Source: an uncultured Desulfobacterales bacterium
GTDB lineage: Bacteria; Desulfobacterota; Desulfobacteria; Desulfobacterales; C00003060
Reading direction: 5' to 3'
Assembly (NCBI GenBank): GCA_964502365.1
Contig: CAZCWQ010000001.1
Span: forward strand, 8,053-72,052
Length of the DNA: 64,000 nucleotides
Below are positions 15,855 to 47,196 of the stretch, one piece after another. The notes beneath the pieces were generated by a model. That model was given only the letters and a program-made list of their open reading frames with translations. It did no database searches and was not told where the DNA came from. Position numbers and translations under genes: made by a program. Within the stretch, counting starts at the first letter, position 1. Each line of letters begins with the position of its first letter.

Positions 15855-16892
15855 TCAACGGGTCTGGAATCTAATGGAGAGGCCGATTTCAACCCTTCTG
15901 TTTTTTGCGCGACCCTCATAGGTGTCGTTGGATGCGATGGGCGACGTCTCTCCTTTCCCGTTGGCAGTGATGAGGTCCTTCCGTATCCCCTTGCTAACCA
16001 GATAGTCCTTTACAGACGCAGCTCTTCTCTTTGAGAGCGCCAGGTTGTCTTCTGCGGGCCCAAGGTCGTCTGTATGCCCTTCGAGATGAATCTTGCCAAC
16101 GGGAATCTGGTTCAACAATGCGCAAGCCGTGTCGAGGGATGGGAGGCACATATTCAGGATTCTATCGCTATTGGCTCGAAAAAGGGTATAAGAAATGTAT
16201 GGTCTAACCAGGCCATAAAAGGCATCGGTTAACCTCGTCACAGCCGTTTGATGGTCTTTTTCTGAAACCAAGTATATGTGTTCCCAGGCCGTTAATAGGT
16301 GTCTTAGGGCCTCCTTGTTCAGTTTTTCGTGGCGGGAAAGATCTCTATTGAATTCAGTGCCGAAAGCATTAAGGCCTGATATGTCCTCTTGTTTGCCAAG
16401 CCTATCAACGAGTTGGTGTATGAGCAGGTTTCGTTTCTGCACAAGGAATTCGCCGGCATAGAGATTAAGAAAAAAAAAGTTCGGATCTTCCCTCGAAACT
16501 TCTTCCAACCCTTTTGAGATAAGCTTGTATGCTCCGTCGAGGTCTCCCTTTCGCACGAGTCTGTGTAGCTTCCCATTTAAAGTCTCGGATTTCTCGTCTG
16601 GGGCCTGTTCACTTGAAAGAGATGCTGCGGCTAAGCTGGGATTTGATTCCATCGTCTCAAGGCCGTCTTCCTCGTTCTCCCATGAACTGGAATTCCAACC
16701 GTCTTCTTGGGGACCAAATCCTAAAGGGCCGGCAGTGTCGTGTTCTGCAAAAGTAAGGGCAGTTAGGAATGGGTCAACTTCAGGTGGGCTGTCCAGGCCT
16801 TCTTCCTGGATTGTTCCAAGACACTTGACAGGGACAGACATAAGAAAAACAAAAAATAGGGCGATTACGGGTTTTCCCATCATCCAGTTCAT
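15855..16892 (-). CDS. OmpA-family protein (C-terminal peptidoglycan-binding domain)
   Basis: Signal peptide present. The C-terminal GHTDDLGPAEDNLALSKRRAASVKDYL...NRRVEI is a canonical OmpA-like domain. Confidence 0.8.
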   Translation of the reverse strand: MNWMMGKPVIALFFVFLMSVPVKCLGTIQEEGLDSPPEVDPFLTALTFAEHDTAGPLGFGPQEDGWNSSSWENEEDGLETMESNPSLAAASLSSEQAPDEKSETLNGKLHRLVRKGDLDGAYKLISKGLEEVSREDPNFFFLNLYAGEFLVQKRNLLIHQLVDRLGKQEDISGLNAFGTEFNRDLSRHEKLNKEALRHLLTAWEHIYLVSEKDHQTAVTRLTDAFYGLVRPYISYTLFRANSDRILNMCLPSLDTACALLNQIPVGKIHLEGHTDDLGPAEDNLALSKRRAASVKDYLVSKGIRKDLITANGKGETSPIASNDTYEGRAKNRRVEIGLSIRFQTR

Positions 16893-16985
16893 TGAAGGAT
16901 CGATAAAACTTCGACGGCATCTGCCACCGCGCCAACCCTAAAACCATGCATTTCCAAACAGGGAGAGGAAACACAGGCACCAAGC

Positions 16986-17909
16986 TCATTCAAAGGCGGC
17001 ATATACTTGAATTCTGCTATTGTTTGTATCAGCAACAAAAACTTCCCCTTTGTTGTTGATGCACAGTTGAGACGGATAGTTCAAGAGCCCTTCTTTCCAT
17101 CCCATGTTGGTCTGCCGGCCAAGAAAAGAGCCGTTCTGGCCAAGGGTGACTATACTGCTTCCGTTTCTATCCACCAGATAAATCCGTCCCCTGGTGTCTG
17201 TGTCCATTGATGTGGGAAAGCGTACATATTCCTTCAAGTTCTGGGTCAAGGGAGAAAACTTCTCGGAACCTTTGAGGGCCAAAAACACCGTGGCGTTTAC
17301 ACTGTCAATTAACAATACATCCCCTTTAGGATCTACTGTCACGTCTGACAGAAACCCATAGTTTTCCGGAAAATCAAGCTGTTTCTGATATGCCCCTTCA
17401 GGGTCAAGGACAAGGACCCGAGAAGAAAATATGTCCAAGACGTATATCTGGTCTTTCTCGTCGATCTCAAAGCTTCTTGGAACAATGGACGCCGGCGAAG
17501 GTGTCCCTGTGGGCTCAAGATAATCTTTAAACTCGCCTTGTGGCGACAGGCGAACAATGCGGCGCTGCCTGCCGTCGAGGACGTAGATCTCGTTCTTTGA
17601 ATTCATCTTGACCATGATGGGATAGACCACCTCAGGCACCTTGATCGGTACTGTTTGGCCTCCCAATGTTTTGTCCTCAAAGGTGTACTGTAAGAGTCGA
17701 CCGTTTCCCGTGTCGGCCACAATCAGGAGGCCCTCGTCGTTACAAACCACCCCCTCCGGCTGCCTGAGGCCCACCCCTTTGTCATCGGCATATATGGACG
17801 CAACATGCCTGAACTTCACCATCTGGCCACAGAAGGACTTCACCGGCCAGAACACTAAAACCGTTAACGCCATGATTACTGCAAGTATTCTGTCTAAGCC
17901 TTTGCTCAT
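16986..17909 (-). CDS. NHL-repeat beta-propeller protein
   Basis: Start chosen at ATG 17909 (MSKGLDRILAVIMALTVLVF signal), 4 nt after the upstream cytochrome stop. Repeated ...YV.D..N.R(I/L)... NHL-type blades. Confidence 0.75.
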   Translation of the reverse strand: MSKGLDRILAVIMALTVLVFWPVKSFCGQMVKFRHVASIYADDKGVGLRQPEGVVCNDEGLLIVADTGNGRLLQYTFEDKTLGGQTVPIKVPEVVYPIMVKMNSKNEIYVLDGRQRRIVRLSPQGEFKDYLEPTGTPSPASIVPRSFEIDEKDQIYVLDIFSSRVLVLDPEGAYQKQLDFPENYGFLSDVTVDPKGDVLLIDSVNATVFLALKGSEKFSPLTQNLKEYVRFPTSMDTDTRGRIYLVDRNGSSIVTLGQNGSFLGRQTNMGWKEGLLNYPSQLCINNKGEVFVADTNNSRIQVYAAFE

Positions 17910-17913
17910 CTTG

Positions 17914-19230
17914 TTATCTCTTCCGTTCCGTGTGGCACTGGATGCACAGGTCATAGACAGTGGCAAATGGCATCATCGCAGGCTTGTTCCCTGTGCCGCA
18001 AGCCTTATGACAGCTTAGACACTCCACAGTGAGGTTCCTGTTCCTTTGGTCTACAACCTTTTCACCAATCGGATGTGTTGAGTGGGTCTGCCATTCGTGG
18101 CAACGGCCGCACAGCTCTATGCTGATAGACTCTTGTGAAATGAGCAGGACGTTATCTGAGGCGTGCGGAGAATGGCAGGCGATGCAATTGCCCGTCTTTA
18201 CGGGTTCGCACAACTTCGGGTTCTTGGGATTACTTATTGACCATTTTTGAAGTTCCACTGTATCGGAATGACACCTCCCGCAAAGATCGACAATGGCCCT
18301 CTTTAAGAGTTTCCCCTGCTTGGTGGCGTGGGGCCCATGACAATTCAAACATCCAGTCTGATCCACCAAAGGCCAGTGTGTGCGATTCTGGTTGAGCGTC
18401 TTATCAATCAGTTTCTTGTGACACTGCATGCACAACTCAGTGCCCTGCCATTTGGTCTTCAACGGGTTGGCCGAAGTTGGTTCTTGGTGGCATGCACTAC
18501 ACTGCTGTTTGCTCACAGGAACATGGGCATCGGCGAACACCATGCCCCTATCATTGGAGCCATGGGGGTCATGGCAGGAGCCACAGTTCGTCTTGGCCAC
18601 AGGGTAATTCATGTGCTTCCTGGAAAAAGAAGGTTTGCCCGTGTCATGGCACTCCACACAGAGGGAAGGGGCATCCTTCTTCAATAAGAAATCAGATTTC
18701 TCTGAGGCGTGCGGGTTATGGCAATTGAGGCACCCCTTTTTCGTGTTCAAGGGTTTATGTTTGAACCGGTTCTTCTTGACTTGGTTCCCCATGTCCTGGT
18801 GGCAATCAAAGCAAAGCTCGTTGCCTGTGTTGACCAGCTGAAACTGGTTGTCCGATCCGTGGGGATCGTGGCATTTGTTGCACTTGCCTTCTGCAACAAC
18901 CATATGGACCTTTTGTGCCTTCTCAGGCATCACGTCCTTATGGCAGTTGGAGCAAAGCCTCGTCGGCCCTGCGGTCAACAAGCCCTTGTGAGAAGATGTA
19001 TGAGGCTCATGGCATGCGGAACACTCGCCCCTTTTCATCAGAGGATGTACATAAGGGCTCTTAATCGTTTTTTGAAAGGTCTCATGACATTTCAGGCATA
19101 GTTGCCCTTTGGCCCCCAGCTTGAGTTTGTGTTTGCCCTCTGGGCGAGCACGAGTCGCCATAAGCAAAGTGCTCATGAGGCAGACCAGCAAGACAGTGGC
19201 GCGGCGCAGGTCAAGTTTCAATGGTCTCAT
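17914..19230 (-). CDS. multiheme c-type cytochrome, 16 CXXCH motifs
   Basis: I counted 16 CXXCH motifs. The start at 19230 forms an ATGA overlap with the upstream 26-heme gene stop, followed by a signal/TM segment. Confidence 0.9.
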   Translation of the reverse strand: MRPLKLDLRRATVLLVCLMSTLLMATRARPEGKHKLKLGAKGQLCLKCHETFQKTIKSPYVHPLMKRGECSACHEPHTSSHKGLLTAGPTRLCSNCHKDVMPEKAQKVHMVVAEGKCNKCHDPHGSDNQFQLVNTGNELCFDCHQDMGNQVKKNRFKHKPLNTKKGCLNCHNPHASEKSDFLLKKDAPSLCVECHDTGKPSFSRKHMNYPVAKTNCGSCHDPHGSNDRGMVFADAHVPVSKQQCSACHQEPTSANPLKTKWQGTELCMQCHKKLIDKTLNQNRTHWPLVDQTGCLNCHGPHATKQGKLLKRAIVDLCGRCHSDTVELQKWSISNPKNPKLCEPVKTGNCIACHSPHASDNVLLISQESISIELCGRCHEWQTHSTHPIGEKVVDQRNRNLTVECLSCHKACGTGNKPAMMPFATVYDLCIQCHTERKR

Positions 19231-21329
19231 GGTTTTTCCACTATGTGGCAGTCTACACATATATTGTCGGCAAAAGGCTTATGCATCTCGTCCTTGAAGA
19301 ATTTGGGATACCTTGAAACGTGAGGGGTGTGGCATTTTCTGCAATCCATCACCTTTGCGTCAATACGGATGTGGGCCTCGCCAAAAGAATCCGCGTCATA
19401 GTCGTGGCATTTTCCGCACAAGGGTTGAATCGGTTCCGCGATGAGGGCTAGTTCTGATGAAACATGGGGCAGGTGACATATCTGGCAGTTTTTCAGATCA
19501 GATGGCGCATGCACATAATACTTTATTTCAACGGCCTCGGGAGCAGTATCGCTCTCGCGCGCGGGCACCTCGCCTGGAGGAGTCTGCGCCTCTTTGTCTT
19601 CCGGGTACATTTTCGCTTTCAGTTCGGTATGGCAAGACAGGCACAAGTCAGGAAATGTGGCCAAGAGAAGGCTGTCGAGGTTTGCCTTATGAGGGCTGTG
19701 ACAGGCCGTACATTCCCCAGCCACCACGGGGCCATGTTGACTCTTGACGTCTGCTATTTCTTTGCCGGGGTCTGTGCCGTGGCATGAACGACACAGAAAG
19801 CTTTGCCTATTCACGATCATGCCCGGGATGTTACTTGCGTGGGCATCATGGCATCTTAGGCACTTTCCATCTCTGAAGTATTTGTGGCTGGAACCTCGCA
19901 CCTGCTTCTGCATAAGCTCACCGTGGCAGTTGGCACACAGTTGGGAGGAGGTGGCATCGGCTATCAGCATCTTTTCTCGGTCTGATCCGTGGGAACGATG
20001 GCAGGCGTCACAACTGCCATTGACTACAGGCTTATGGGTATTTGTTTTTGCGAACCGTATTTCAGCATCAAAATGACAGGCGTAACAAACCGTGTCCATC
20101 CTGTCCTTTAACATGCCCTTGAAATTCGACCCGTGGGAATTGTGGCAGGCATTACACATCCTGTCTGAAAAGGGTTGATGTGGGTTGCGGGTTCTCAGAT
20201 CTCTTTTTGTATTCTCATGACACGAGAAACACAGGTCTTCCACTTTTGCAATCAGGAGCTTCTCGTTCCTGGCGGCATGCCTCACATGGCATGAAAGGCA
20301 TCCTCTGTCGCTTGTGAGCGCTTGATGAGAGACCGCCACGGGGACGGCTTTATCGGCATGGCAACCGGCACAGAGTTGGTTGCCCTTCCTGGCAAGGAGG
20401 GTTGGATTTTCTGAGGTGTGGGGATTATGGCAAGAAATACATCGTCCCTTCTGAAAGGGCGAATGCTCGATATGCCCCCCTCCCTTAAGATCTGATGCCT
20501 TATGGCACTCGTGGCAAAGGTCGCTGCCCTTCATGGGCGTCTCAAAGGGTTTCTCGGACGAAGACGGGTTGTGGCATTTTATGCACTCAATGCTGAGAAC
20601 GGGGGGATGGGCACTGGTTCTCAACAGTCTGGGCTGTGATGATGAGTGGGGATTGTGGCAGTTGACACAGAGTGATACCTGTACAGGATAGTCGCCATGT
20701 GCTTTCTTGAATGATCTTTGACCATAGTCATGGCAGGATATGCAAAGGGCCGACTCTTTGTTCTTGAGGAGGTAAGGCTCGTCGGAACTGTGCGACAGGT
20801 GACAGACTTGACAAGGCTCTGTCTGCAATATCTTATGTACCACTTTCTTTTCGTAGCCTTCCCTCTTGTGACACTGGTAGCAAAGGTCGCGGCCTTGGGC
20901 CTTTAAGAGATGGCTTGCCTCGGACGCATGGGGGTCATGGCAGTTGGTGCATTTTCCTCTCTCGAGTCCTGTGTGCACCACGGACTTGTCCATGCCCATT
21001 TGCTTTTTTGTGTGGCACGGATAGCACAACCCCTTTCCCTCTTTCTTAAGTAGCAGCTTTGGGATCTTACCGTGTCTAAGGTGGCAATCTTCGCACTTAT
21101 TCTCCTTCACAACGGAATGAACGTTTTTCATTCCCAGATATTTAGCAGCAAAATCAGTGTGACACTCTACACACGCCTTACGCTCAAACTTGCGCGGTTG
21201 TCGCGAACGGACCGGCGCGCATGCCGAAAAGAAATAGAAAATCCCCGCCAGGACAAGTAGTACTCCCGCCACGACATATTTTCGCTTGCCAAGCATCAAG
21301 ACTCCGCGATCTCTCATTGCCATGGTCAT
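19227..21329 (-). CDS. giant multiheme c-type cytochrome, 26 CXXCH motifs
   Basis: I counted 26 CXXCH motifs in 700 aa. It has an N-terminal hydrophobic anchor ending FFSAC. Confidence 0.9.
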   Translation of the reverse strand: MTMAMRDRGVLMLGKRKYVVAGVLLVLAGIFYFFSACAPVRSRQPRKFERKACVECHTDFAAKYLGMKNVHSVVKENKCEDCHLRHGKIPKLLLKKEGKGLCYPCHTKKQMGMDKSVVHTGLERGKCTNCHDPHASEASHLLKAQGRDLCYQCHKREGYEKKVVHKILQTEPCQVCHLSHSSDEPYLLKNKESALCISCHDYGQRSFKKAHGDYPVQVSLCVNCHNPHSSSQPRLLRTSAHPPVLSIECIKCHNPSSSEKPFETPMKGSDLCHECHKASDLKGGGHIEHSPFQKGRCISCHNPHTSENPTLLARKGNQLCAGCHADKAVPVAVSHQALTSDRGCLSCHVRHAARNEKLLIAKVEDLCFSCHENTKRDLRTRNPHQPFSDRMCNACHNSHGSNFKGMLKDRMDTVCYACHFDAEIRFAKTNTHKPVVNGSCDACHRSHGSDREKMLIADATSSQLCANCHGELMQKQVRGSSHKYFRDGKCLRCHDAHASNIPGMIVNRQSFLCRSCHGTDPGKEIADVKSQHGPVVAGECTACHSPHKANLDSLLLATFPDLCLSCHTELKAKMYPEDKEAQTPPGEVPARESDTAPEAVEIKYYVHAPSDLKNCQICHLPHVSSELALIAEPIQPLCGKCHDYDADSFGEAHIRIDAKVMDCRKCHTPHVSRYPKFFKDEMHKPFADNICVDCHIVEKP

Positions 21330-21344
21330 TACGACTTTACAATC

Positions 21345-23267
21345 CTACGGTTGAAGATCTTCTCGGTGAATCTCTACCGGATAGTACGCTCTGAGTTCGT
21401 CTGCCCAGTGCTCGATCGACGCCTTCATCTTTTCCTTATAAAGGCCCTCTGCAATTTCTTCTTTCACATCTTCAAACGGTTTTGCCTTGGGGGAAATCAC
21501 GGCGGACACGAACAAGACATAGTACAGGCCATCAGGGCTCGCATACAGCCTGAAATCTCCAGAATCGGCCCCTGATACGGCCTTTTGGACTGCTTCGGGC
21601 AATCCCTCCAGGGTCAGCAGCGTCCCATCGAACGGTAGAACCCCGGCCGTGTCCTTGTCAACCTGCCCCGCTGCATTGGAACTCAACCAGTCAAAGTCTG
21701 TGCCTTTGTTCAGCTTCTCCATGGCATCCACGGCCCGACTTCTTTCTTTGAACACGACACTGCGTATTCTCATCATCTGCGGGAACGTGTACTCCTGAAG
21801 ATTGTCGTCATAGCGTTGTTTCAGTTCCTTCTCAGTGAGCTTGATGTCAGGGACAACGACTTTGTTCATGAAGGCGGCAAAGATGACCGAGTTTTCATAC
21901 TCCTTGACTCTCTGTTTATAAATCTCCGTCTCATGAATCCCCTGCTTCAGGGCCTCTTTTTCCAGTACCCGCTTTTGAAGTAGCTCTTCTAAGACCTCGC
22001 CCTTTCTCTTGTTCACTTTCTCCGTTTCGATGGCTCTCTCAACCCCGTGGTAAAATCTCGCTTTCAAACCATTGCTCAAGTCTGCAACGGTAATCGGCGT
22101 TTCTCCTTTTATCTCGGCAACAACTCGCGTGTCTTCCAAGAGGTCTTCGAATCCCGGTTTCTTGGATTCATAGTCAAGGGCATCAAAGATCTTGGCGTTT
22201 ATCTTCACATATTTCTTCTTCAAACCCTCGTAGTAGGCGTTGCCGGCACGAAGTTTCTCCTGTTTAAGGGCTTGGTGCCTTGCCTTTTGCCTTGCCTCCT
22301 GGTTCTCGTCTTTTGGGTAGCGAATACCTTCAAGGCGAAAGAGGATAAACCCTTTGTTCCCAAGTGAAAGGATAGGACTCACAGAGCCGATCTCCATTTT
22401 CGAGACAACCTGGGCCACCGGCAGCGTCAGATCCTTGGCCTTCAAATATCCTGCCTCTTGGTCTCCTTTCGCCACGCTTCGGGCAACGGCGCTGTCAACC
22501 ACCGTGTCAAAGCTCTTGCCTGCCTTTATCTCTTCCTGAATTTGCTTTGCTTCATGTTCCTTTTCAACCGTCACCGACCTTAGCTTCCATTCCTTCACTA
22601 TTTCCTTGTAGAACCGCTGCACTTCCTGCTCATCGGCCTTCACGTCTTTCATTTGCCGTTCAAGCAGAAGCTCGATAAGGCTCTTTACCGCATAGTCAGC
22701 CACAGCGCTTTTCACTTCCGGCAACTCGCCAAGGCCCATCTCTCTGGCCTCAAGCCCAATAAGTTTCATATTGATCATGCGCTTCATAATCGCGGAATAG
22801 TCTATCCGACCTGCCTCTCTTTCCTCCTGCCTTGCCGAGTGTGAGGAGGCAATGGCCCTGTTGAACTCTTCCAAAGTAATTGGTTCTCCGTCCACTGTTG
22901 CCACGACCTCCTTGTTGTCAACCAGGGGAAGTTCCTTGGCTTCGGCAAAGGCCAATGCTGAAGCCAGTAGCAAGCAAGTGGCAACGCACGCGAGCACAGC
23001 CCCTACCCATTGGACGGGACAGCCGGTCTGGTTGCTTTCATGTGTTAAGACGGAGGATAAGCGTCGGTAAAACTCCTTTCGAAATAGCAAGGCATTTGGC
23101 GACATGGTGGGCTGGGTCGGCCTGGCGAAAGCCCTGCCGCCAAGACCAACAGGAAGAACAGGCTTTGCATAGGGTTCCGGAGCAAGCATGTTGAAATGAG
23201 ACGATACCCAGGCTTTTCTTAATAACGGGATGCCCGCCGATTCAGCATTCATCGCATTGTGGCACAC
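21345..23267 (-). CDS. SurA/PpiD-like peptidyl-prolyl isomerase (PpiC/parvulin type)
   Basis: Has a TM/signal segment, a SurA-N-like VATVDGEPITLEEFNRAI and parvulin-like regions. The start is uncertain (GTG 23267, ATG 23252 or ATG 23105). Confidence 0.65.
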   Translation of the reverse strand: MCHNAMNAESAGIPLLRKAWVSSHFNMLAPEPYAKPVLPVGLGGRAFARPTQPTMSPNALLFRKEFYRRLSSVLTHESNQTGCPVQWVGAVLACVATCLLLASALAFAEAKELPLVDNKEVVATVDGEPITLEEFNRAIASSHSARQEEREAGRIDYSAIMKRMINMKLIGLEAREMGLGELPEVKSAVADYAVKSLIELLLERQMKDVKADEQEVQRFYKEIVKEWKLRSVTVEKEHEAKQIQEEIKAGKSFDTVVDSAVARSVAKGDQEAGYLKAKDLTLPVAQVVSKMEIGSVSPILSLGNKGFILFRLEGIRYPKDENQEARQKARHQALKQEKLRAGNAYYEGLKKKYVKINAKIFDALDYESKKPGFEDLLEDTRVVAEIKGETPITVADLSNGLKARFYHGVERAIETEKVNKRKGEVLEELLQKRVLEKEALKQGIHETEIYKQRVKEYENSVIFAAFMNKVVVPDIKLTEKELKQRYDDNLQEYTFPQMMRIRSVVFKERSRAVDAMEKLNKGTDFDWLSSNAAGQVDKDTAGVLPFDGTLLTLEGLPEAVQKAVSGADSGDFRLYASPDGLYYVLFVSAVISPKAKPFEDVKEEIAEGLYKEKMKASIEHWADELRAYYPVEIHREDLQP

Positions 23268-23335
23268 TCAGGTTCCCTTTGCAACTGCAAAACTGCCGGC
23301 TGCCCACAGGGCTCCAACAAGGACAAAAACATTTG

Positions 23336-23698
23336 CTAAAATACCTGTTTTAAAAAAGCCTTGATGTCAGACAGGACAAAGGGCTTGGGGATAAAAACGG
23401 CTCCCTTTTCTTCGATAGTCCTTTTTATTTCATCACCAACAGAACTTGCCGAAATAATGGCGACATTAGTTTCAGGGGATATCTGATGTATTTCGTCCAT
23501 GACATCCAGGCCACTCACATCGGGCAGTCCCAGATCGAGGAAACACACCCAGTAGGATGAGAAGTGCATCTCAATGATGGCATCTCTGCCCGTTGAGGCG
23601 GTTTTGATCTCTCCTTCAAAACCGCACAATTTACGAAGTGCGCCTGACATGCCGGACAGAATAGATGGCTCATCGTCAACGATTAGAATCTTTCTCAT
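23336..23698 (-). CDS. single-domain response regulator (REC only)
   Basis: ILIVDDEPSIL...FLDLGLPDVSG...KPF receiver-domain signature, 120 aa. Confidence 0.85.
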   Translation of the reverse strand: MRKILIVDDEPSILSGMSGALRKLCGFEGEIKTASTGRDAIIEMHFSSYWVCFLDLGLPDVSGLDVMDEIHQISPETNVAIISASSVGDEIKRTIEEKGAVFIPKPFVLSDIKAFLKQVF

Positions 23699-23769
23699 AA
23701 ATCACCTATTTGCCCAAGGGCTTTTTGTTATTCATCAACCCTTAAATGCTTCGCAGTAATCAAGAGGAG

Positions 23770-23977: not shown

Positions 23978-24062
23978 CTTCTGCCTCAATCAACTCGCCA
24001 TTGCAGGGCGTCATGATTACCTAACACTTTGATTCGAAACGTGTTTTGTGGGGAAAAATCGA

Positions 24063-28223: not shown

Positions 28224-28226
28224 CCG

Positions 28227-39674: not shown

Positions 39675-39702
39675 TTTAGCGGCCTTTCAAAGGAGGGGGC
39701 GA

Positions 39703-40863
39703 CTAATGCCCACTTTTGTGATTGCGTTTGGTTCGATAATAGTCCAGCATCTGGTGTAGTGACATAGATCCTATCACCAAGGCTATCAACACCTTATAAA
39801 AAAGTCTTACGAGGGTAAGTATCTTTTCCTGAAACACGTTTTTGTTGGAGATGCCGATTTCAGCTTGCCTCTTTGACTGCCAGGCTTTGTAGTTGACCTG
39901 AATGATATCTTTTCCGGCATAGGGCGCAACCGGCCCATTCATCCCAAACGCATGCTCTCTGCCAGCCACAAACTCCGCATCGGCATTGGGATGACATATC
40001 TGAACGCCTCCCTGGTGACGACAAGTATTTATTCTATTGGCAGGATTGACCGGCGAACGAGGGTCTGACGTGGTAAGGATATCATGTTTGGCATAGCCTA
40101 TGGGTACGTGACAATTCAGGCAATCCGGGGCGTTTTGAACGCCATATTTGATCTGAACCCAATGAAAGGTATCCCTGAAGGTCCCGACTGTTCTCAGGCC
40201 ATGTCGGGCCATCATTTGTGGATCTTCATGACAACTTAAACACAATTCCACGATCTCTGCCTGGCTCCTTCTCCTCCTCATACGGTGCGAAACATGCGAA
40301 TAGAATCGGTCTGCCCACTGTTGCTCCGTGTGGCAGCCAAAGCATCTGCCCAGTGCCTCATTGGCCAAAGGAGACCCCTCGCTCCACATAGTGCCACTAG
40401 GGTTGAGGATTCGATTATCGTGACAATACTTGCACGTCGGTAAGTCTTTGACATAGTTTTTGGGGCTCTTGGGTGTTCCAGTTCCGTGAGCGCTTGCTTC
40501 ATGTATCTTTAGAACCTTCAGGTGTGAGAATTGCTGTTTGCTGGACGGCTCTTCTGTGTGACATTTTGTGGCACAATCCACCTTCTTGACGTCGGTGTGA
40601 GGTATCTTGTCGAGGCCGACGTGACAGTCTTTGCATTTGAGCGTTCCATGCACCGACTCCGCAAACATCTTGTCGTTCAGATAGAATACCCTCTTGTTAC
40701 CATCTTCGTCATACCGTCCAATATGAGGATATCGGTGACACAACAGGCAATTCTCCGTGTCAGGGACCAGATCAATGGCTGCAAAGGCGACCCTAAAAGG
40801 AAGAACCAGAAAAAATACCATTATAAGAAACGCTATCACTGGTATCGAGCTGTCATTTCTCAT
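39703..40863 (-). CDS. membrane-anchored multiheme c-type cytochrome (6 CXXCH plus CX3CH), Cbc-like operon first gene
   Basis: Motifs are CLLCH, CKDCH, CKYCH, CFGCH, CLSCH and CLNCH, plus CATKCH. It has N- and C-terminal TM segments. I prefer the ATG at 40863 (MRNDSSIPVIAFLIMVFF...) over the TTG at 40944, which abuts a promoter-like site. Confidence 0.8.
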   Translation of the reverse strand: MRNDSSIPVIAFLIMVFFLVLPFRVAFAAIDLVPDTENCLLCHRYPHIGRYDEDGNKRVFYLNDKMFAESVHGTLKCKDCHVGLDKIPHTDVKKVDCATKCHTEEPSSKQQFSHLKVLKIHEASAHGTGTPKSPKNYVKDLPTCKYCHDNRILNPSGTMWSEGSPLANEALGRCFGCHTEQQWADRFYSHVSHRMRRRRSQAEIVELCLSCHEDPQMMARHGLRTVGTFRDTFHWVQIKYGVQNAPDCLNCHVPIGYAKHDILTTSDPRSPVNPANRINTCRHQGGVQICHPNADAEFVAGREHAFGMNGPVAPYAGKDIIQVNYKAWQSKRQAEIGISNKNVFQEKILTLVRLFYKVLIALVIGSMSLHQMLDYYRTKRNHKSGH

Positions 40864-40940
40864 GGATTCTATCTTTGTCCCAACTTCGCCTTTTTCCCAA
40901 GGCTGGATGGCCGAGTAATTGCTAGTAGTATCGTTTATAA

Positions 40941-40955
40941 TCAATGTCTGTGCCA
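40941..40955 (-). promoter_or_regulatory. candidate sigma-54-type promoter for the Cbc-like operon
   Basis: The reverse complement reads TGGCACAGACATTGA. The -24 box is perfect, but the -12 box is TTGA instead of TTGC. Confidence 0.4.
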
Positions 40956-41025
40956 GAATATTCCTATACGCCTGGACACATGGAAATCCAATGGGTTACA
41001 TGATTTAAGCTGTCTTCTTGAATGA

Positions 41026-41077
41026 TGAAATCAAAGAAATTTTGGTCAAAACACCATATGAAATCGGTCATTTCACC
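41026..41077. promoter_or_regulatory. cluster of TGAAATC-type sites related to the 23.9 kb palindromes
   Basis: TGAAATC occurs at 41026-41032 and 41059-41065. GGTCATTTCACC at 41066-41077 has reverse complement GGTGAAATGACC, an 11/12 match to GGTGAAATCACC. Confidence 0.35.
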
Positions 41078-41224
41078 ACACGGTCTATGACTTTTTCCTT
41101 ACACCCTGTGCCGTTGACAAATTGACAGAACTGGCCCATGATACTCAAATAATTCTGAACTATACACAAGACCAAGGCAAACCCGCAGGCCTTATGTTGG
41201 TTAAGAGGTCTCGTTTTTTGAAGA

Positions 41225-42169
41225 ATGAAAAAGCATCTGTTGGTAAATCTCTTGACTGTTGTTTGTAGTTGTTTTTTGTACACACAAGCCCTCGTTTGCT
41301 TCGCTGCCGACGAGACTGGATGCCTAACCTGCCACAAGTACCCAGGACTTGTAAGACGCGAAAAAGATGCACTCAAGGCGCTTCATATCGATGAACAAAC
41401 CTTTCTAGGCTCTCCCCATGGCAAGCTTAACTGCAAGCAGTGCCATGCAGACATCGTTAAGGTCCCCCACACCGGTCAGAATGCCGTCCGATGCGTCACG
41501 CCTGCGTGTCATGCGAGTGATAAGGAACGCGCTGTAATCGAAAAATATCCCTTACAGACCCTCCATCAGAAGGAGCATTCTTTTATCGTTAAGTTACAGG
41601 ATCAGTCATCGTGCAGAGTATGCCACGCCCTGTATCCCCACAGCAAGAGTAATCTGGTTAGAGCGCTACTCAACATGCACACAGGCTTCATAACCTGCGA
41701 GGTGTGCCATCTCAAACGAGATGCCTTTGCCCGTGTTGCCTATCAATGGAGCGAACCTGAACACGTTGAATTCACCGGCTTGCCTTATGGGTCCCGTTAT
41801 GATCCAGAGAGAGGAATTGTCAGAACAACCGGGAATCTTATATCTCGTTTGGTTGTCTTTGTTTGGGAAAAGGGCAGGAAAACGCTGTTCGTCCATAAAC
41901 AAGATGCTGACGAGGCGAATCGATTCTTGTTGGAGGAAAAAGGGCTGAAGGACAGGGACAAAGAGACCAAGTTGGTTTTTTTTCACAGGAATATCTCGCG
42001 TAAAGAGATAACCCTTGCCTGTAAAGAATGCCATTCCCGTAAGGGCATTCTGGATTTTGGCAGCCTTGGTTTCGGCAAAAAAAAGAGTAAAGACCTCATG
42101 GACCTCGATCTCGCGGGGTTGGTCGCTAAATACGACGTTTTTTATCTCCCAGATCTTTTTGGTCATTAG
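41225..42169 (+). CDS. multiheme c-type cytochrome (5 CXXCH plus CX4CH), mosaic of the two Cbc-operon cytochrome modules
   Basis: Motifs are CLTCH, CKQCH, CRVCH, CEVCH and CKECH, plus CVTPACH. The N-terminal ~100 aa parallel the 39703 gene and the remainder parallels the 38091 gene. Confidence 0.85.
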   Translation: MKKHLLVNLLTVVCSCFLYTQALVCFAADETGCLTCHKYPGLVRREKDALKALHIDEQTFLGSPHGKLNCKQCHADIVKVPHTGQNAVRCVTPACHASDKERAVIEKYPLQTLHQKEHSFIVKLQDQSSCRVCHALYPHSKSNLVRALLNMHTGFITCEVCHLKRDAFARVAYQWSEPEHVEFTGLPYGSRYDPERGIVRTTGNLISRLVVFVWEKGRKTLFVHKQDADEANRFLLEEKGLKDRDKETKLVFFHRNISRKEITLACKECHSRKGILDFGSLGFGKKKSKDLMDLDLAGLVAKYDVFYLPDLFGH

Positions 42170-42183
42170 TTCATCATAGCACC

Positions 42184-43170
42184 TTGAAACAGAATCTGTC
42201 GAAAAACCTTGCCCTCTTCAGAGCTACATGGGCAAATTGCTTGTCCCGCCTTTTTGTGTTGTCCTGCGTTATGCTGATGGTAATACCATTGCTCCCTGCA
42301 CATGCCGTACGGCTCGCCTATGTAAAAGGTCTTTTTGAGATTAACCATAATCTCCGAGCACCCACGGATGTCTCCGTTTCCAATCATGGCCTGATATATG
42401 TTGTAGACGGCGTACACCACGAAATCAAGATCTTCACGAGAAACGGTGAATTCCTGTCTTCTTTGGGTGGAAAGGGTTCTGGAAATGGCGAGTTTGAATC
42501 CCCTTTAGGAGTTGCAGTTGATGGCTCGGGCAGAGCCTACGTCGCCGATTCTGGAAATCACAGGGTGCAGATATTCAACCGGGATGGCAGCTTTGCCGCA
42601 TCAATTGACATTCCACCGGGCAATCTCCATCTGGCAGATCCCACAGATGTTGCTGTCAATGAGTCCACGAATACCTGTTACATCGTTGATAACGATAACC
42701 ATCGTGTCTTAGTCTATAATCTCAAGACCCTTGAATTTATGGGGAGCTTCGGAAAACCAGGGACCCAGAGGCGTGAATTCAGATATCCATTCCTTCTCGC
42801 CATAAACGCGGATGGATATCTCCATATTGTGGATGTCCTTAATACAAGGCTCCAGGTGCTCAGCCCGGAAGGTTATTTTGTTTCCGTTATTGGTAAGTGG
42901 GGCGTTGAACCGGGAGAGTTCTTCAGACCCAAGGGGGTGGCCATCGACAGGCAGGGGCGAGTTTATGTCAGTGATAGCTATATGGGGGTGATACAGGTAT
43001 TTGAGGCAGGCGGCGACTTTTGGGCCGTGATCGGTGATCCCAAAGATGAAACCGTGAAAAGATTTAGGACACCAACAGGCATATTCATCGACAATAATGA
43101 CCGACTTTATGTGGTGGAAACCTTTGCAGACAAGGTAAGCGTATACAGCTTGGGGACGGAAACCGAATAA
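42184..43170 (+). CDS. NHL-repeat beta-propeller protein
   Basis: Repeated blades (IYVVDGVHHEIKIF, AYVADSGNHRVQIF, CYIVDNDNHRVLVY, LHIVDVLNTRLQVL, VYVSDSYMGVIQVF, LYVVETFADKVSVY). The TTG start is uncertain. Confidence 0.8.
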   Translation: MKQNLSKNLALFRATWANCLSRLFVLSCVMLMVIPLLPAHAVRLAYVKGLFEINHNLRAPTDVSVSNHGLIYVVDGVHHEIKIFTRNGEFLSSLGGKGSGNGEFESPLGVAVDGSGRAYVADSGNHRVQIFNRDGSFAASIDIPPGNLHLADPTDVAVNESTNTCYIVDNDNHRVLVYNLKTLEFMGSFGKPGTQRREFRYPFLLAINADGYLHIVDVLNTRLQVLSPEGYFVSVIGKWGVEPGEFFRPKGVAIDRQGRVYVSDSYMGVIQVFEAGGDFWAVIGDPKDETVKRFRTPTGIFIDNNDRLYVVETFADKVSVYSLGTETE

Positions 43171-43179
43171 AGAAACACC

Positions 43180-45678
43180 TTGCCTTTGGAGCAAAGCGAA
43201 ACTCCTTTGAATCAAGTGAGATCTTACTGTGGCGTGAAGCAGGCGATTTGCCTCGGATTGTTATTCGCCTCCGTGCTATTCCAATTGCAGGTTTCCCACG
43301 CACAAGATGAAGCGTTGAGGAACCCTCGATCTGCAAAAGAGTGCGCCATATGCCACTATCGCTGGATCGATACGTTCTTTATCGATGGAAAAGGTTCCGA
43401 GCTGGTCCCGTACCAGTCGGAAAAGGTTGTGGCCACTCCTGATATGTGTTTTTCATGCCATGATGGCAGCGTGCTGGATTCGAGGGTAAGGGTGTACAAT
43501 GATTACGGACACAAGACGAACAAGCCACCGCCTTCTCATGTCAAGGTGCCCAAAACCTTCCCCTTGGATGAAAAGGGAAATGTGCAGTGTGCTACGTGCC
43601 ATACACCGCATGGTGTTCCGAGCGGGCCAACCGCCCAGGAAAGTATCTTCTTGAGAACTTCGAACAAAAACTCAGCCATGTGCCGGATGTGTCATGCTGA
43701 TGTGGACGGAGGGATAGATACAGGGAATCATCCCATCGGCGAGATGAAACAAGTTATTCCTGGAAGCCTTGTTTCCCTTGGCAGTGCCGTGGGGACAAGT
43801 GGTCGTCTAATCATTTGTGAGACATGCCACACAGCGCACGGCTCGCCTTACGAGAACCTTTTGATTAAGAGCGGCAGGGATTCCGGGCTGTGTGTCGAAT
43901 GTCACCGGGAAAAAGACAATAGAATCTCCCATGGAAAGAAAAAGCCGTTTCACCTGGTCAATGTCGTACCCAGGAGAGTCATAGTGCCCGAGAAGCTCAT
44001 TGAGAGGGGAGCAAGATTGGGTCGTGAGAGAAAAATCATCTGCCAGTCCTGTCATAAGGTGCATCATAATAAAATCAAACAGAGACTGTTGATCGTCAGA
44101 CAGGACATGCACTCCAGCCTATGTCTTACTTGTCACACAGAGAAGAAATACATTTTGGATACAAAACATAATCTCATCCATTCCGCACCACGAGAAAAGA
44201 ATCTCCAGGCAAAGACCGTAAGAGAGAAGGGCGTGTGCTCGGCCTGTCACTTGCCTCACAAACCGGCTCGGAGAGTAGATGAGGACCGGGATTTCGCTTC
44301 AGGGCTCTGTTTGAGCTGTCACAGCAAAGGACATGTGGGCGAGAATCCTCTGCTTGATGGGTATTCTCATCCTTTGAATGTAAGACCAAGCAGTAAAAAA
44401 CACGTAAATACCTTAGCTGGTGCACAAAGCATTCGGTCATCAGGACCGATGCTTCCTCTTTTTGCGGAATTTGGCATTCAGGACAAAACCGGGAAGCTTG
44501 CTTGCCCAACGTGTCATGACGCTCACAGATGGCAGGCGAACTCAACGGTGGGAGAAACAAGAAAAGGTGTGAAAGGAAATCGGATGACATCGTTTCTGCG
44601 GAGTCCATCGCCAGAGATTTGCCAGGACTGCCACAGCGAGAAGTTCTTTGTTGTAGACTCGGGACATGATCTGAGGAAGGTTGCTCCTTTGGAGAGGAAC
44701 ATTTTCGATCAGACGCCGTCGAAATCGGGTCTCTGTGGAAGCTGTCATCTTGTGCATGGGGGACAGAAAGATTTCTTGTGGGCGAGGGAAATTACTTCCA
44801 TGGGTGGGAGTATCGTGCAAGATTTGTGTTCGAGCTGCCACAACAAAAAGGGCATGGCAAAAGATAATGTGATAAAGGGGTATTCTCATCCTCTAAACAT
44901 CCTACCTTCGGAAAAAGACATCAAGACCACGCTTCCCCTTTTTGATGAAAACGACAGAATTCGTGAAAATGGTGTGATGCGATGCCACACGTGCCACGAT
45001 ACGCATGGTTCGCTTCCATCAGCATCAGGCAATGACCGCGTCGATGTTGTCAAGAACTCAAAAAACAGGTTTCTGAGATTGGAATATACACCATCTCCCA
45101 GGCTCTGCGAAGATTGCCACAGCAAGAAAGCGTACATTGAGAGGACCGAGCATGACCTGACTGTGACAGCGCCTTTGTCAAAAAATGAAATAGACAAACT
45201 ACCTTCTCAATCAGGCATATGCGGAGTCTGCCATGCTGTACACGGCAGCAAAAACAAGACAAGACTTTGGGCGCAGGCCTTTGGGACGGGTAACAACATC
45301 ATGGAAAGGATGTGCAATTCTTGTCATTCAGAAATAGGGTCAGCAAGAGACAAGATACCACGAATCGCGTCTCATCCAGATGTGCTCATTAACAACCTTG
45401 GACGAAACGCTAAAGGAAGCCTCCATTTTTTCCCACTGTTTCACAAAAGATCTGGGGAAATGGTGGAAGTTGGCAATATCTCATGTCCCTCGTGCCATGA
45501 CGGGCATATCTGGGATCCGCAGTCTCGCGCTAAGGGGAAAGGAAAAAGACTGGAGGGAGATGCGACCAACAGCTTTCTGAGGGGTAGAGCTCGCGATCTG
45601 CCCTGCAAGAACTGTCACGGCCCTGACGGACTGTTTAAGTTGCTTTATTTCCATGAACCTGGAAAACGGGCAAGCTAG
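43180..45678 (+). CDS. giant multiheme c-type cytochrome, 20 CXXCH motifs
   Basis: I counted 20 CXXCH motifs in about 830 aa, with a hydrophobic signal-like segment. The start codon is uncertain (TTG 43180 or a downstream GTG). Confidence 0.85.
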   Translation: MPLEQSETPLNQVRSYCGVKQAICLGLLFASVLFQLQVSHAQDEALRNPRSAKECAICHYRWIDTFFIDGKGSELVPYQSEKVVATPDMCFSCHDGSVLDSRVRVYNDYGHKTNKPPPSHVKVPKTFPLDEKGNVQCATCHTPHGVPSGPTAQESIFLRTSNKNSAMCRMCHADVDGGIDTGNHPIGEMKQVIPGSLVSLGSAVGTSGRLIICETCHTAHGSPYENLLIKSGRDSGLCVECHREKDNRISHGKKKPFHLVNVVPRRVIVPEKLIERGARLGRERKIICQSCHKVHHNKIKQRLLIVRQDMHSSLCLTCHTEKKYILDTKHNLIHSAPREKNLQAKTVREKGVCSACHLPHKPARRVDEDRDFASGLCLSCHSKGHVGENPLLDGYSHPLNVRPSSKKHVNTLAGAQSIRSSGPMLPLFAEFGIQDKTGKLACPTCHDAHRWQANSTVGETRKGVKGNRMTSFLRSPSPEICQDCHSEKFFVVDSGHDLRKVAPLERNIFDQTPSKSGLCGSCHLVHGGQKDFLWAREITSMGGSIVQDLCSSCHNKKGMAKDNVIKGYSHPLNILPSEKDIKTTLPLFDENDRIRENGVMRCHTCHDTHGSLPSASGNDRVDVVKNSKNRFLRLEYTPSPRLCEDCHSKKAYIERTEHDLTVTAPLSKNEIDKLPSQSGICGVCHAVHGSKNKTRLWAQAFGTGNNIMERMCNSCHSEIGSARDKIPRIASHPDVLINNLGRNAKGSLHFFPLFHKRSGEMVEVGNISCPSCHDGHIWDPQSRAKGKGKRLEGDATNSFLRGRARDLPCKNCHGPDGLFKLLYFHEPGKRAS

Positions 45679-46059
45679 CAAGTTGTCATTATAACTTGCT
45701 GTCGGAAAGCACATAAATACTGCCGGCGGATACGGAAGGATCATGTGTGTGGCCACCTCCATCACATCCAATTCAACGATTCTCATTCATCATAACCATG
45801 CCCACCAAACAGCAGGCCAGATCCTGTAAGCCTCCTACAAGCTAGCATCTGAAATCCAGCGATTATTTCAGACTATTCAGTTCCGAAATTCAAATGCCGA
45901 TACAATGGTCATGAATGACTAAAGGCTTGGCGAGGACGCGCTAGTCCATACGCAGCGTATGTGGGTTGAACTATCCCATGACATAGCGTATAGCTGGATG
46001 ATGCCAGCTTACCTATTTCCATATTGTCAGTCAGTTGCGGCGATTTTTTACGTGTCAAG

Positions 46060-47196
46060 ATGAAGAACAGGCTGGAAGCGATACTCATAACCATACTTGC
46101 TTTGACGGGAAACCTCGCCCTTCAAGTGCTGCCGGGTCCTGCCCACGCCTTCCATGAAGGGGGTGTTGGGTACTGCGAAGGCTGTCATGTTTTGAATGAA
46201 TCGCCAGAAGACCAGACTCCCACCGGCCCACAGCTTCGAGGCTCAGATCCGAGCTCAACTTGTCTGCGTTGTCATGCAGATGAAGGCAAGTTCTTCAACG
46301 TGATGAGTCAAGACGGGTCATCGTATACCCCGGGGGGTGACTTCTATTGGTTGACAAAAACTTTCCTGTGGAGTGTCAATGGAAGGTCTTACCGAAGCCC
46401 CGGCAACAATCACGGCCACAATGTCGTTGCTGCTGATTACGGCTTGGCTCCGGACCAGATACGGGGCTCGGCTCCCGGTGGCATATACCCTTCAACTGCG
46501 ATGGGTTGTAACAGCTGTCACAACCCCCATGCAATGACATCGACTTCTGGCTTTTACGAGGAAGACCCTCCCCCGGGAACAGAGGTGGGCAACTTCAGGC
46601 TTCTTGGCGGAACCAATTACCGCGCTGGTGACCGAGTTAACGGTATGGTTTTTTCATATCCATCCCCCGTGGCTGTGGCCAACGTAAATGACTGGATTGA
46701 GACCGACTTCAACCACACCGCCTATGGTTCAGGAATGTCCGATTGGTGTGGTAATTGCCACACCGGCATTCTCAATGAGGGCAACAAGCACCCGTGTGGG
46801 AAAATCGCGGGACTTAGCGCCACCATCATTTCCAATTACAACGCCTACATGGCCACAGGCCTTCTAGGCGGATTTCAAACAACATCCTATTTGTCATTAG
46901 TCCCTTTCGAGGTTGGGACAACGGCAGAGTATCTCCTTGACCCATCCAGCACGTCTGGGCCCGAAGGAACGGCCAATGTCATGTGTCTGACTTGTCACAG
47001 GGCCCATGCCTCGGCCTTTCAGGATATTGGGAGATGGGATTTTCAATCTACATTCATCGCTAATTCGCATCCCAAACCAGGTGACGGCGGCATAACCGGT
47101 AATGACGTACTCAACAGCTATTACGGCAGGAATATGATTGCAGAGTTTGGCAGCTTCCAAAGACAGCTTTGCAATAAATGTCACCTGCAAGATTAG
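46060..47196 (+). CDS. OmcS-family hexaheme cytochrome, second paralog
   Basis: ATG 46060, signal ...AHA|FHEGGVGYCEGCHVLN, six CXXCH motifs. It shares the same conserved blocks as 25416-26600 and ends CNKCHLQD. Confidence 0.85.
   Translation: MKNRLEAILITILALTGNLALQVLPGPAHAFHEGGVGYCEGCHVLNESPEDQTPTGPQLRGSDPSSTCLRCHADEGKFFNVMSQDGSSYTPGGDFYWLTKTFLWSVNGRSYRSPGNNHGHNVVAADYGLAPDQIRGSAPGGIYPSTAMGCNSCHNPHAMTSTSGFYEEDPPPGTEVGNFRLLGGTNYRAGDRVNGMVFSYPSPVAVANVNDWIETDFNHTAYGSGMSDWCGNCHTGILNEGNKHPCGKIAGLSATIISNYNAYMATGLLGGFQTTSYLSLVPFEVGTTAEYLLDPSSTSGPEGTANVMCLTCHRAHASAFQDIGRWDFQSTFIANSHPKPGDGGITGNDVLNSYYGRNMIAEFGSFQRQLCNKCHLQD

Follow-up and report, generated by a model that had tools for sequence, protein, structure and literature searches.

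A predicted supercluster of osc, regulatory and multiheme cytochrome genes in an uncultured Desulfobacterales bacterium

The DNA described here is a 64,000-nucleotide stretch (the window) of contig CAZCWQ010000001.1 from an uncultured Desulfobacterales bacterium, and its positions 15855 to 47196 hold an island of genes for multiheme c-type cytochromes, beta-propeller proteins, lipoproteins and regulators. The island is read here, with a probability of about 0.7, as a supercluster composed of three conserved blocks and one stray gene. Block 1 (16986-32297) is, judging by gene-by-gene homology and the same gene order within its parts, a complete homologue of the omcS-companion (osc) cluster of Geobacter. 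Block 2 (32307-36888) comprises a regulatory triad, and block 3 (37078-45678) appears from its relatives to be a separately conserved cluster, with a 20-heme cytochrome and an NHL propeller in addition to a cytochrome b unit, and occurs elsewhere without OmcS. The stray gene codes for a second OmcS-like protein, B, and belongs to neither conserved block. The OmcS homologue and its osc companions are already published and widespread, so that this part of the locus is a confirmation. No published description was found of the conserved seven-gene cytochrome b/NHL/20-heme cluster, of its repeated linkage to osc genes via a predicted heme-type sensor kinase, of the operator that they share, or of an OmcS paralogue devoid of the inter-subunit histidine.

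Gene content and boundaries of the island

Open reading frames (ORFs) of the 15855-47196 region were translated, their CXXCH motifs were counted, and domains were assigned with the Pfam and NCBIfam models. Nine cytochromes carry, in order along the DNA, 16, 26, 6, 7, 3, 6, 5, 20 and 6 CXXCH motifs, 95 in total, against well below one expected by chance in ca. 7,000 residues. An initial annotation of the window, made without database searches, had given these counts gene by gene and a total of about 95, and translation reproduced them exactly. A tenth heme-motif protein, overlooked there, is the histidine kinase of block 2, with a single CXXCH at residue 89.

The domain calls of that annotation stand for the cytochrome b, the YVTN propeller, the parvulin-type isomerase, the OmpA-like protein, the lipoproteins, the kinase and the activator. 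Two of its three NHL propellers (16986-17966 and 42184-43170) are firm, and the third (24218-25201) is a weak propeller match by profile. Its large barrel, a protein of 724 residues, has no family match; the assignment is supported indirectly, by homology to OscE and by barrel-like sequence features. Pfam and NCBIfam hold no models for OmcS, OscE or OscG, and neither the 724-residue nor the 387-residue protein of block 1 matches a curated family in these two collections. The coordinates given earlier proved correct, with the ATG at 46060 being a plausible start of the B gene within an ORF that opens with TTG at 46024.

To the left, the island is flanked by genes for CusCBA-type efflux and for the biosynthesis of methionine, and to the right by genes for a DnaJ-domain protein and a DUF2784 protein. 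Since these flanks comprise unrelated housekeeping genes, the boundaries of the island are considered real.

The osc block and the OmcS-like proteins

Block 1 and the stray OmcS-like gene comprise the following genes.

16986-17966, minus strand: NHL beta-propeller protein (NHL1), last gene of the osc block (PF01436, E 1.7e-25)
17914-19260, minus strand: 16-heme cytochrome, OscJ-like (16 CXXCH)
19227-21329, minus strand: 26-heme cytochrome, OscI-like, of the GSU2495 type (26 CXXCH in 700 residues)
21345-23267, minus strand: chaperone with SurA_N and parvulin (PpiC) domains, OscH-like (Rotamase_2, E 1.8e-24)
23336-23698, minus strand: single-domain response regulator, REC only (PF00072, E 5.9e-19)
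24218-25201, plus strand: 327-residue beta-propeller protein (in 50 of the 80 loci surveyed below)
25416-26600, plus strand: OmcS-like hexaheme protein A, predicted filament subunit (phmmer against 6EF8, E 8.2e-63)
26751-28223, plus strand: YVTN beta-propeller lipoprotein of 490 residues, OscD-like (TIGR02276, E 1e-28)
28227-30401, plus strand: predicted outer-membrane beta-barrel protein of 724 residues, OscE-like (signal peptide)
30593-31186, plus strand: GNA1162/LpoB-like lipoprotein of 197 residues, OscF-like (PF05643; lipobox LTAC)
31134-32297, plus strand: lipoprotein of 387 residues, OscG-like (44% identity, E 3e-102, to the 392-residue OscG)
46024-47196, plus strand: OmcS-like hexaheme protein B, orphan-type paralogue (phmmer against 6EF8, E 2.9e-62)

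A resemblance to the omcS neighbourhood of G. sulfurreducens and the existence of a published osc cluster had both been named in the initial annotation. The cluster does exist in the literature (PMC13194489 and PMC12977616, both of which cite Shen et al. 2025), and the synteny was borne out gene by gene, with nearly equal protein lengths. The reference was the G. sulfurreducens locus in AP028061.1 (L082; L-numbers are labels of the loci collected for comparison), whose stretch ends at OscG and whose proteins were compared by blastp. It encodes, in this order, a kinase, a sigma-54 regulator, a 327-residue protein, OmcS, OmcT and a 1017-residue protein, followed by proteins of 437, 492, 725, 199 and 392 residues. 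Counting along the operon from published tags (oscC = GSU2501, oscI = GSU2495 and oscJ = GSU2494, in the same two articles), the last four are OscD, OscE, OscF and OscG (GSU2500-2497). The osc proteins of the window agree with them in length within 5 residues. The 327-residue propeller is 36% identical (E 2e-77) to the 327-residue protein encoded just upstream of omcS, the OscD-like protein 41% (E 2e-108) to the 492-residue OscD, the 724-residue protein 31% (E 4e-90) to the 725-residue OscE, and the OscF-like protein 61% (E 9e-73) to the 199-residue OscF. The OscG-like protein resembles OscF in its C-terminal half (27% identity).

The OscH-, OscI- and OscJ-like proteins were compared with those of Geomonas azotofigens (L057), where the genes stand in the same order, and are 40-53% identical to them. 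The OscH-like protein is 40% identical to its Geomonas homologue and is found in 43 of the 80 loci; its true start lies probably downstream of the GTG, because the homologues have 552-578 residues. The 16-heme cytochrome is 53% identical to the Geomonas protein and recurs in 37 of the 80 loci with its 16 hemes conserved. The 26-heme cytochrome, which has a possible lipobox, FFSAC, after an N-terminal hydrophobic segment, has 26-heme homologues in L002-L005, L012 and L041, and GSU2495 is described as a protein of ca. 70 kDa with 26 hemes (PMC12977616). NHL1 corresponds by position to GSU2493, and its homologues (42-55%) follow the 16-heme gene in seven loci (L002, L003, L004, L012, L014, L040, and L041).

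All window proteins were mapped onto 80 OmcS-centred loci taken from more than 572 confirmed ones. The canonical order, on a single strand, is the 327-residue propeller, one to four OmcS-like genes, the YVTN protein, the 724-residue protein, the 197-residue lipoprotein, the 387-residue protein, the parvulin, the 26-heme and 16-heme cytochromes, and NHL. It often follows PhnD, kinase and sigma-54 activator genes with a divergent REC-only gene, and the block occurs in ca. 35-50 of the 80 loci, from Desulfuromonadales, Geomonas, Desulfobulbaceae, and Nitrospirota. In the window the REC-only gene is likewise divergent from the propeller/omcS operon, a position that it holds in many loci, canonical clusters included. 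Compared with the G. sulfurreducens omcS/osc locus (GSU2505-GSU2493), the window has the same gene set in the same order within each block, at 31-61% identity, and in both a kinase and a sigma-54 regulator are adjacent. In the window, however, the PpiC/26-heme/16-heme/NHL block is inverted and divergent, the regulators lie downstream, the osc block contains one OmcS-type gene instead of three, and the 1017-residue spermine-synthase-like gene is missing. The window thus departs from the collinear single-strand Geobacter layout; it has the inverted, divergent OscH-to-NHL block in common with six related Desulfobacterota loci, L002-L005, L012 (a Desulfosudis oleivorans metagenome-assembled genome, MAG) and L064.

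The initial annotation had made its reading depend on a significant similarity of the two hexaheme proteins to OmcS, and both are full-length homologues, with E of about 1e-62. In phmmer searches against the PDB entries 6EF8 and 6NEF, residues 26-394 of A and 43-390 of B each align to residues 1-407 of 6EF8. The two share 41% identity; by blastp A is 40% identical to G. sulfurreducens OmcS (E 2e-78) and 37-40% to OmcS, OmcT and OscC. The six CXXCH motifs are invariant and in conserved order in A, in B and throughout an alignment of 12 sequences. Five invariant histidines outside the motifs (H2, H110, H147, H257, and H335 of OmcS) are present in A and B and, given their invariance, are taken as distal heme ligands. 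The family is large: the protein collection gave more than 2,888 matches at E < 1e-5, and reference genomes sampled at one per species gave over 572 confirmed loci, the best of them 51% identical. It ranges over Desulfuromonadales, Geobacteraceae, Desulfobulbaceae, Desulfobacteraceae, and Nitrospirota.

The two proteins differ at one position. His16 of mature OmcS is reportedly (Wang et al. 2019) the sixth distal ligand, binding the heme of the neighbouring subunit. A keeps it (CDGCHSMH), while B has Asn there (CEGCHVLN) and is the sole exception among the 12 aligned sequences. His16 was found in 97 of 105 distinct family members (drawn from the first 81 loci and the window), a degree of conservation that would be difficult to account for if selection did not act on the inter-subunit bond; such a cross-subunit bond in the OmcS filament has been described (PMC12307469). 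A lies in the oscC position, directly upstream of the OscD-like gene. According to an all-against-all BLAST of the family, the nearest relatives of B (52-63% identity) are orphans with unrelated neighbours. In this orphan clade the His16 position is Leu in L020, L032 and L036, and His in the closer relatives L021 and L011; the mixture of His, Leu and Asn indicates that the loss of His16 was recent and repeated. More speculatively, B could accept the histidine of a neighbour and, being unable to donate one, would cap or anchor a filament.

Two companions of A deserve separate mention. The OscD-like protein contains no CXXCH, in contrast to OscD of G. sulfurreducens, in which CSGCH directly follows the lipobox (L082, 15790-17268). 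The motif is present in 1 of 56 OscD homologues, that of G. sulfurreducens alone, and so does not define the wider OscD family; its lack in the other 55 means that the published heme-dependent behaviour of OscD may be specific to G. sulfurreducens. The 724-residue protein ends in KLIF, its terminal Phe being conserved among homologues, and contains 25 amphipathic strand-like segments, ca. twice as many as control proteins.

The regulatory triad, the cytochrome b cluster and their control elements

Blocks 2 and 3 comprise the following genes.

32307-33701, minus strand: NtrC-type sigma-54 activator with REC, AAA+ and HTH_8 domains (domain search)
33698-35908, minus strand: sensor histidine kinase with HAMP, two PAS, HisKA and HATPase domains (domain search)
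35908-36888, minus strand: PhnD-like periplasmic binding protein, first gene of the triad (PF12974, E 9e-65)
37078-38013, plus strand: 7-heme cytochrome, accessory member (7 CXXCH and 1 CX3CH)
38091-38891, minus strand: 3-heme cytochrome with an N-terminal membrane anchor (CXXCH count)
38919-39674, minus strand: membrane cytochrome b of the cytochrome b561/Ni_hydr_CYTB family, CbcB-like (PF01292, E 8e-14)
39703-40944, minus strand: 6-heme cytochrome, CbcA-like (six CXXCH and one CX3CH)
41225-42169, plus strand: 5-heme cytochrome, first gene of the 5-heme/NHL/20-heme operon (5 CXXCH and 1 CX4CH)
42184-43170, plus strand: NHL beta-propeller protein (NHL2; PF01436, E 4e-31)
43180-45678, plus strand: 20-heme cytochrome, signature gene of block 3 (20 CXXCH)

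A kinase with a sigma-54 activator in the middle of the region had been proposed before, and the domain calls agree. Two transmembrane helices of the kinase bracket a periplasmic domain of ca. 150 residues carrying C-x-x-C-H-H at residue 89. The CXXCHH motif is invariant in 36 distinct homologues from Desulfobacterota and Nitrospirota, including those of Desulfuromonas and of the isolate Malonomonas rubra DSM 5091. The kinase most likely uses this domain to bind a c-type heme and to sense the redox state. Such a kinase occurs in L005, L012, L033, L044, L047, L055, L071, L087, L088, and many of L090-L169, which points to a conserved family of c-type-heme sensor kinases always following a PhnD-like binding protein. 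In the kinase-centred loci obtained by scanning metagenome contigs with this sensor domain as the query, the order PhnD-kinase-sigma-54 activator is kept almost throughout. The triad adjoins osc genes in ca. 12 of 36 such loci of at least 7 kb, has the 20-heme cluster on one side and osc on the other in L105 and L165, and stands beside block 3 genes alone in L124 and L169. Orthologues of the activator (62-70%) are found beside osc, the 20-heme cluster or both. The kinase of the window, with its heme-type sensor, differs from the one beside omcS in G. sulfurreducens, which has a dCache sensor and no CXXCH.

Block 3 was delimited by taking the surroundings of six homologues of the 20-heme gene and comparing them with the window. 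Homologues of this gene number more than 1,000, the best 120 of which cover 89-99% of the query at 42-75% identity, and in relatives the signature cytochrome has 20 or 24 hemes. The set of 6-heme, cytochrome b, 3-heme, 5-heme, NHL, and 20-heme genes is found at 44-63% identity in seven loci (L084, L086, L087, L088, L089, L105, and L165); the identity is 46-63% in two complete Desulfobacterota MAG chromosomes, CP070652 and CP070697, and a Nitrospiraceae genome carries a more distant version. Individually, the 3-heme protein is 56-60% identical to its counterparts in L084, L086, L005 and L105, the 5-heme protein 44-51% in L084, L086, L105, L165, and L169, and, in L084, L086, L105 and L165, the cytochrome b is 57-63%, the 6-heme protein 53-56%, and NHL2 53-59% identical. 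The 3-heme and 5-heme proteins are paralogues (27-35% identity). Homologues of the accessory 7-heme protein (43-47%) adjoin the 20-heme cluster in L084, L105 and L169. Searches of the PDB with the 5-, 6-, 7- and 20-heme proteins (the 3-heme protein was not searched) gave weak generic cytochrome matches and no significant match to OmcE, OmcZ or archaeal filament cytochromes; with the 20-heme query, OmcE (7TFS) came up at no better than E 0.12.

The initial annotation had placed a Cbc-like quinol oxidase in the region, and a CbcBA-like cytochrome b/c unit does lie there, the likeness being one of architecture. In CbcBA the C-terminal helix of CbcA gives a histidine to the hydrogenase-type cytochrome b CbcB, and the operon is controlled by the activator BccR acting with a sigma-54 promoter (Joshi et al. 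2021, bioRxiv 10.1101/2021.04.15.440034). Similarly, the 6-heme protein, encoded just before the cytochrome b, has an N-terminal signal or anchor, and its C-terminal transmembrane helix contains a conserved His (LHQ); translation probably begins at the Met near 40863. In the cytochrome b, six histidines are invariant over nine homologues, and a crude hydropathy scan shows three strongly hydrophobic segments. The control may also resemble that of CbcBA, a REC/sigma-54/HTH activator being encoded in the vicinity; the unit's own promoter has GA at -12, while those of relatives score 10-11/11. Unlike CbcA with its seven hemes, the window cytochrome has six CXXCH and one CX3CH, and the unit differs from CbcBA further in an extra anchored 3-heme subunit and in its fixed association with the 5-heme, NHL and 20-heme genes. 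It looks as though the cytochrome b/6-heme/3-heme unit works like CbcBA, most likely exchanging electrons with the quinone pool at the inner membrane. Single in the window, the unit is tandemly duplicated in L084, L087, L088, and L165, where the additional copy shows 30-40% identity and has a C-terminal helix without the histidine.

Four control elements were recognised.

23769-23784, minus strand: candidate sigma-54 promoter of the REC/PpiC/26-heme/16-heme/NHL operon (TGGTATGGTAATTGCC, 8/11, GG and GC intact)
23943-23954 and 23965-23976, no strand assigned: palindrome GGTGAAATCACC, present twice without mismatch at a distance of 22 bp, in the space between the divergent osc promoters
24063-24078, plus strand: sigma-54 (-24/-12) promoter of the propeller/omcS/oscD-G operon (TGGCATGTAGATTGCT, 10/11)
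40940-41077, no strand assigned: divergent control region of block 3, with a sigma-54-like site and a palindrome

Sigma-54 sites were scored over 11 consensus positions, with the antisense strand as a control. The TGGCATGTAGATTGCT site lies 140 bp upstream of the 327-residue propeller gene, and a site of at least 10/11 precedes that gene in 23 of 38 loci versus 2 of 38 in the antisense control, with a background of 0.03 per kb per strand over all compared DNA. The signal emerges only in upstream-restricted scans compared across loci: a scan of the whole window gave no more matches than shuffled sequence. Sites related to the divergent promoter score 10/11 in L003 and 9/11 in L012. The identical 16-mer TGGTATGGTAATTGCC also precedes the 5-heme gene in L087 (7933-7948) and L088 (7906-7921), two contigs unrelated to each other. 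In block 3 relatives, sites of 10-11/11 are found in five of six promoter regions (L084, L086, L087, L088, and L089). No strong sigma-54 site or palindrome was found in the G. sulfurreducens locus.

The palindrome GGTGA-N2-TCACC occurs 28 times in 2.18 Mb of compared sequence against ca. 2 expected, an enrichment of ca. 13-fold. Outside the window there are 24 copies, 6 upstream of the propeller gene, 9 in 6-heme/5-heme regions, 6 beside regulators, and 3 elsewhere. They are often paired 22 bp apart, and were noted in L003, L007, L008, L012, L017, L084, L087-L089, L124, L125, L165, and L169. Where both elements occur, the palindrome is 100-130 bp upstream of the promoter, as with the minus-strand block 3 promoter of L084, L087 and L088 and its exact palindrome; this is the usual geometry for an enhancer-binding protein. 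GGTGA-N2-TCACC is therefore predicted to be the binding site (upstream activating sequence) of the sigma-54 activator, and one activator is predicted to control both clusters as one regulon.

The three blocks meet again elsewhere. Block 3, the regulators and osc are together in L087, L105 and L165, and L012 has osc, the regulators and a 20-heme gene; the three-block supercluster is thus found in at least four other contigs, with differing block orders. The initial annotation considered the links to a regulator and to a Cbc-like oxidase unusual, which overstates the case, since both arrangements recur and are conserved, and in G. sulfurreducens itself omcS is accompanied by a kinase and a sigma-54 regulator.

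Proposed pathway, alternative readings and neighbouring genes

The supercluster may be read as one route from the inner membrane to the cell surface. In block 3, the CbcBA-like unit would act at the quinone pool, and the 5-heme, NHL, 20-heme and 7-heme proteins would carry electrons through the periplasm. Block 1 would provide A as the filament subunit. For G. sulfurreducens, Shen et al. 2025 (Cell Chem Biol), as cited in PMC13194489, assign OscH to OmcS folding and OscE, OscF and OscG to secretion, and a role in filament morphology is proposed for OscD; by analogy the OscH-like chaperone would fold A, the OscE-, OscF- and OscG-like proteins would export it, and the OscD-like protein would shape the filament, while two NHL-type propellers and the cytochromes with 26 and 16 hemes complete the filament block. 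In block 2, the PhnD-like protein, the putative redox-sensing heme kinase and the sigma-54 activator would form the regulatory triad. The activator would bind the palindrome and switch on the sigma-54 promoters before blocks 1 and 3, so that the membrane oxidoreductase, the large periplasmic cytochromes and the filament machinery would be induced together. That the triad and its operator constitute a dedicated redox regulon, switching the whole membrane-to-filament route as a unit in a Desulfobacterota lineage, is put forward tentatively, at somewhat less than even odds.

Several observations weigh against this route and its common control. Among G. sulfurreducens paralogues only OmcS is known to polymerise, and sequence cannot yet separate polymerising from non-polymerising OmcS paralogues (PMC12977616). 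A single-sequence AlphaFold2 model of the 724-residue protein gave a predicted local distance difference test score (pLDDT) of 30 and no usable barrel fold. In the block 3 control region, the site of the cbc-like operon, TGGCACAGACATTGAT (40940-40955, minus strand), reads GA in place of the -12 GC, the palindrome GGTCATTTCACC (41066-41077) has one mismatch, and no sigma-54 site was found between that palindrome and the 5-heme gene. Finally, sequence does not tell whether electrons would be exported or taken up.

The direction matters for one alternative, in which the same machinery works inward: a sulfate-reducing or syntrophic host would take up electrons from a partner or a mineral, with reduction of the quinone pool by the CbcBA-like unit. 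Desulfobacteraceae and Desulfosudis are the labels of the genomes with the nearest loci, and Murali et al. propose a reversed use of OmcS-like filaments and CbcBA in the bacterial partners of methane-oxidising archaea. Against it, the window holds no marker of sulfate reduction or other host metabolism. Uptake is given a chance comparable to that of the regulon, doubtful yet substantial. Somewhat less probable, and on balance unlikely, is a porin-cytochrome conduit, in which the 724-residue barrel would enclose the two large osc cytochromes, with 26 and 16 hemes, as a wire across the outer membrane, one of them periplasmic and the other an extracellular lipoprotein, with the OmcS-like protein as the extracellular partner. 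The cluster would then serve to conduct electrons and would neither assemble nor secrete a filament. Its model is the oetABI cassette, which encodes a periplasmic cytochrome (OetA), a beta-barrel of the outer membrane (OetI) and a lipoprotein cytochrome outside the cell (OetB; Murali et al. 2023, PMC10553843). Like the window, that cassette joins a barrel, large cytochromes and OmcS-like extracellular cytochromes in Desulfobacterota and, likened by description, is probably the same set of gene families under another name; its authors read the barrel as an electron conduit, not a secretion channel, and report it as rare in Desulfobacterales, while the nearest relatives of the window are labelled Desulfobacteraceae. 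The size, signal peptide and C-terminal Phe of the 724-residue protein suit a large outer-membrane barrel, and the lipobox-like FFSAC of the 26-heme protein suits a lipoprotein. A plain conduit leaves the parvulin chaperone, the OscF/G-like lipoproteins and the propellers devoid of a role, and the secretion and folding functions assigned to OscE, OscF, OscG and OscH speak against it, although the conduit is compatible with the assembly model.

Less likely again is that the OmcS-like proteins are ordinary surface hexahemes that do not polymerise, the companion block exporting and maturing them with no nanowire formed. The modest identity of A to OmcS, OmcT and OscC and the missing His16 of B agree with this; A nevertheless retains all heme motifs, the invariant distal histidines and His16, the last being kept by the great majority of the family. 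The initial annotation had seen instead a region duplicated into two OmcS-type modules, in each of which a giant cytochrome and an OmcS subunit would accompany an NHL propeller, and indeed both halves hold such a trio and A and B are clearly related. None of the assembly genes (OscD-H) is doubled, though; NHL2 is only ca. 25% identical to NHL1, and the 20-heme cytochrome shows generic similarity (21-25%) to the 26-heme and 16-heme ones. The 5-heme/NHL2/20-heme genes always travel with the cytochrome b unit, and an OmcS gene follows the 20-heme gene in none of the seven loci that hold it with its 5-heme/NHL neighbours. The 37078-45678 block is thus conserved apart from OmcS, and B belongs to a clade of orphans. 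On these identity and synteny data the duplication model was rejected as highly improbable.

Under the preferred reading, a supercluster of three blocks and a stray gene, the locus bears on two questions: what feeds the OmcS filaments of Geobacter from the inner membrane and periplasm, and what turns on filament production. Geobacter has dozens of redundant cytochromes spread over the genome, which complicates the first of these. Here a candidate quinol oxidoreductase, large periplasmic cytochromes, a complete filament assembly set, and a predicted heme-type sensor kinase with its activator are physically linked, and the linked parts share predicted promoters and an operator, both in the window and in at least four other contigs. 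The island is thereby a compact, testable candidate for a complete pathway plus its switch, and a defined gene set for heterologous nanowire production. A nanowire cluster built on the same general recipe, in which a filament subunit is joined by two multiheme cytochromes, lipoproteins of the beta-propeller type and a large beta-barrel, has been described for OmcE (bioRxiv 10.1101/2025.10.22.684050), whose tetraheme subunit is of another family than the OmcS type of the window.

One further gene lies at the left edge of the island.

15855-16892, minus strand: protein with an OmpA C-terminal domain (PF00691, E 8.7e-18)

It is located downstream of the NHL1 gene on the same strand, and no homologue of it was found in any of the 80 OmcS-centred loci; having no counterpart in related loci, it may not belong to the cluster.

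In the rest of the window, which holds no tRNA and no Rfam match, two areas (48300-55400 and 61300-64000) have a lower G+C content, about 42-47%, and no ORF of at least 150 residues except two at 51821-52861 with no Pfam match; the sole recognised domain there is that of a PilZ protein (53124-53573), and no tandem repeats, tRNA or Rfam matches were detected in them. The CusCBA-type heavy-metal efflux system (3345-9814), unrelated to the island, combines an AcrB-family pump with an outer-membrane factor and a membrane-fusion protein that carries heavy-metal-binding domains, and a DUF3347 protein is encoded next. Two successive ORFs at 55387-56459 carry GspD-type N0 and Secretin_N domains with no secretin C-terminal domain after them, and may represent a split or truncated secretin gene.

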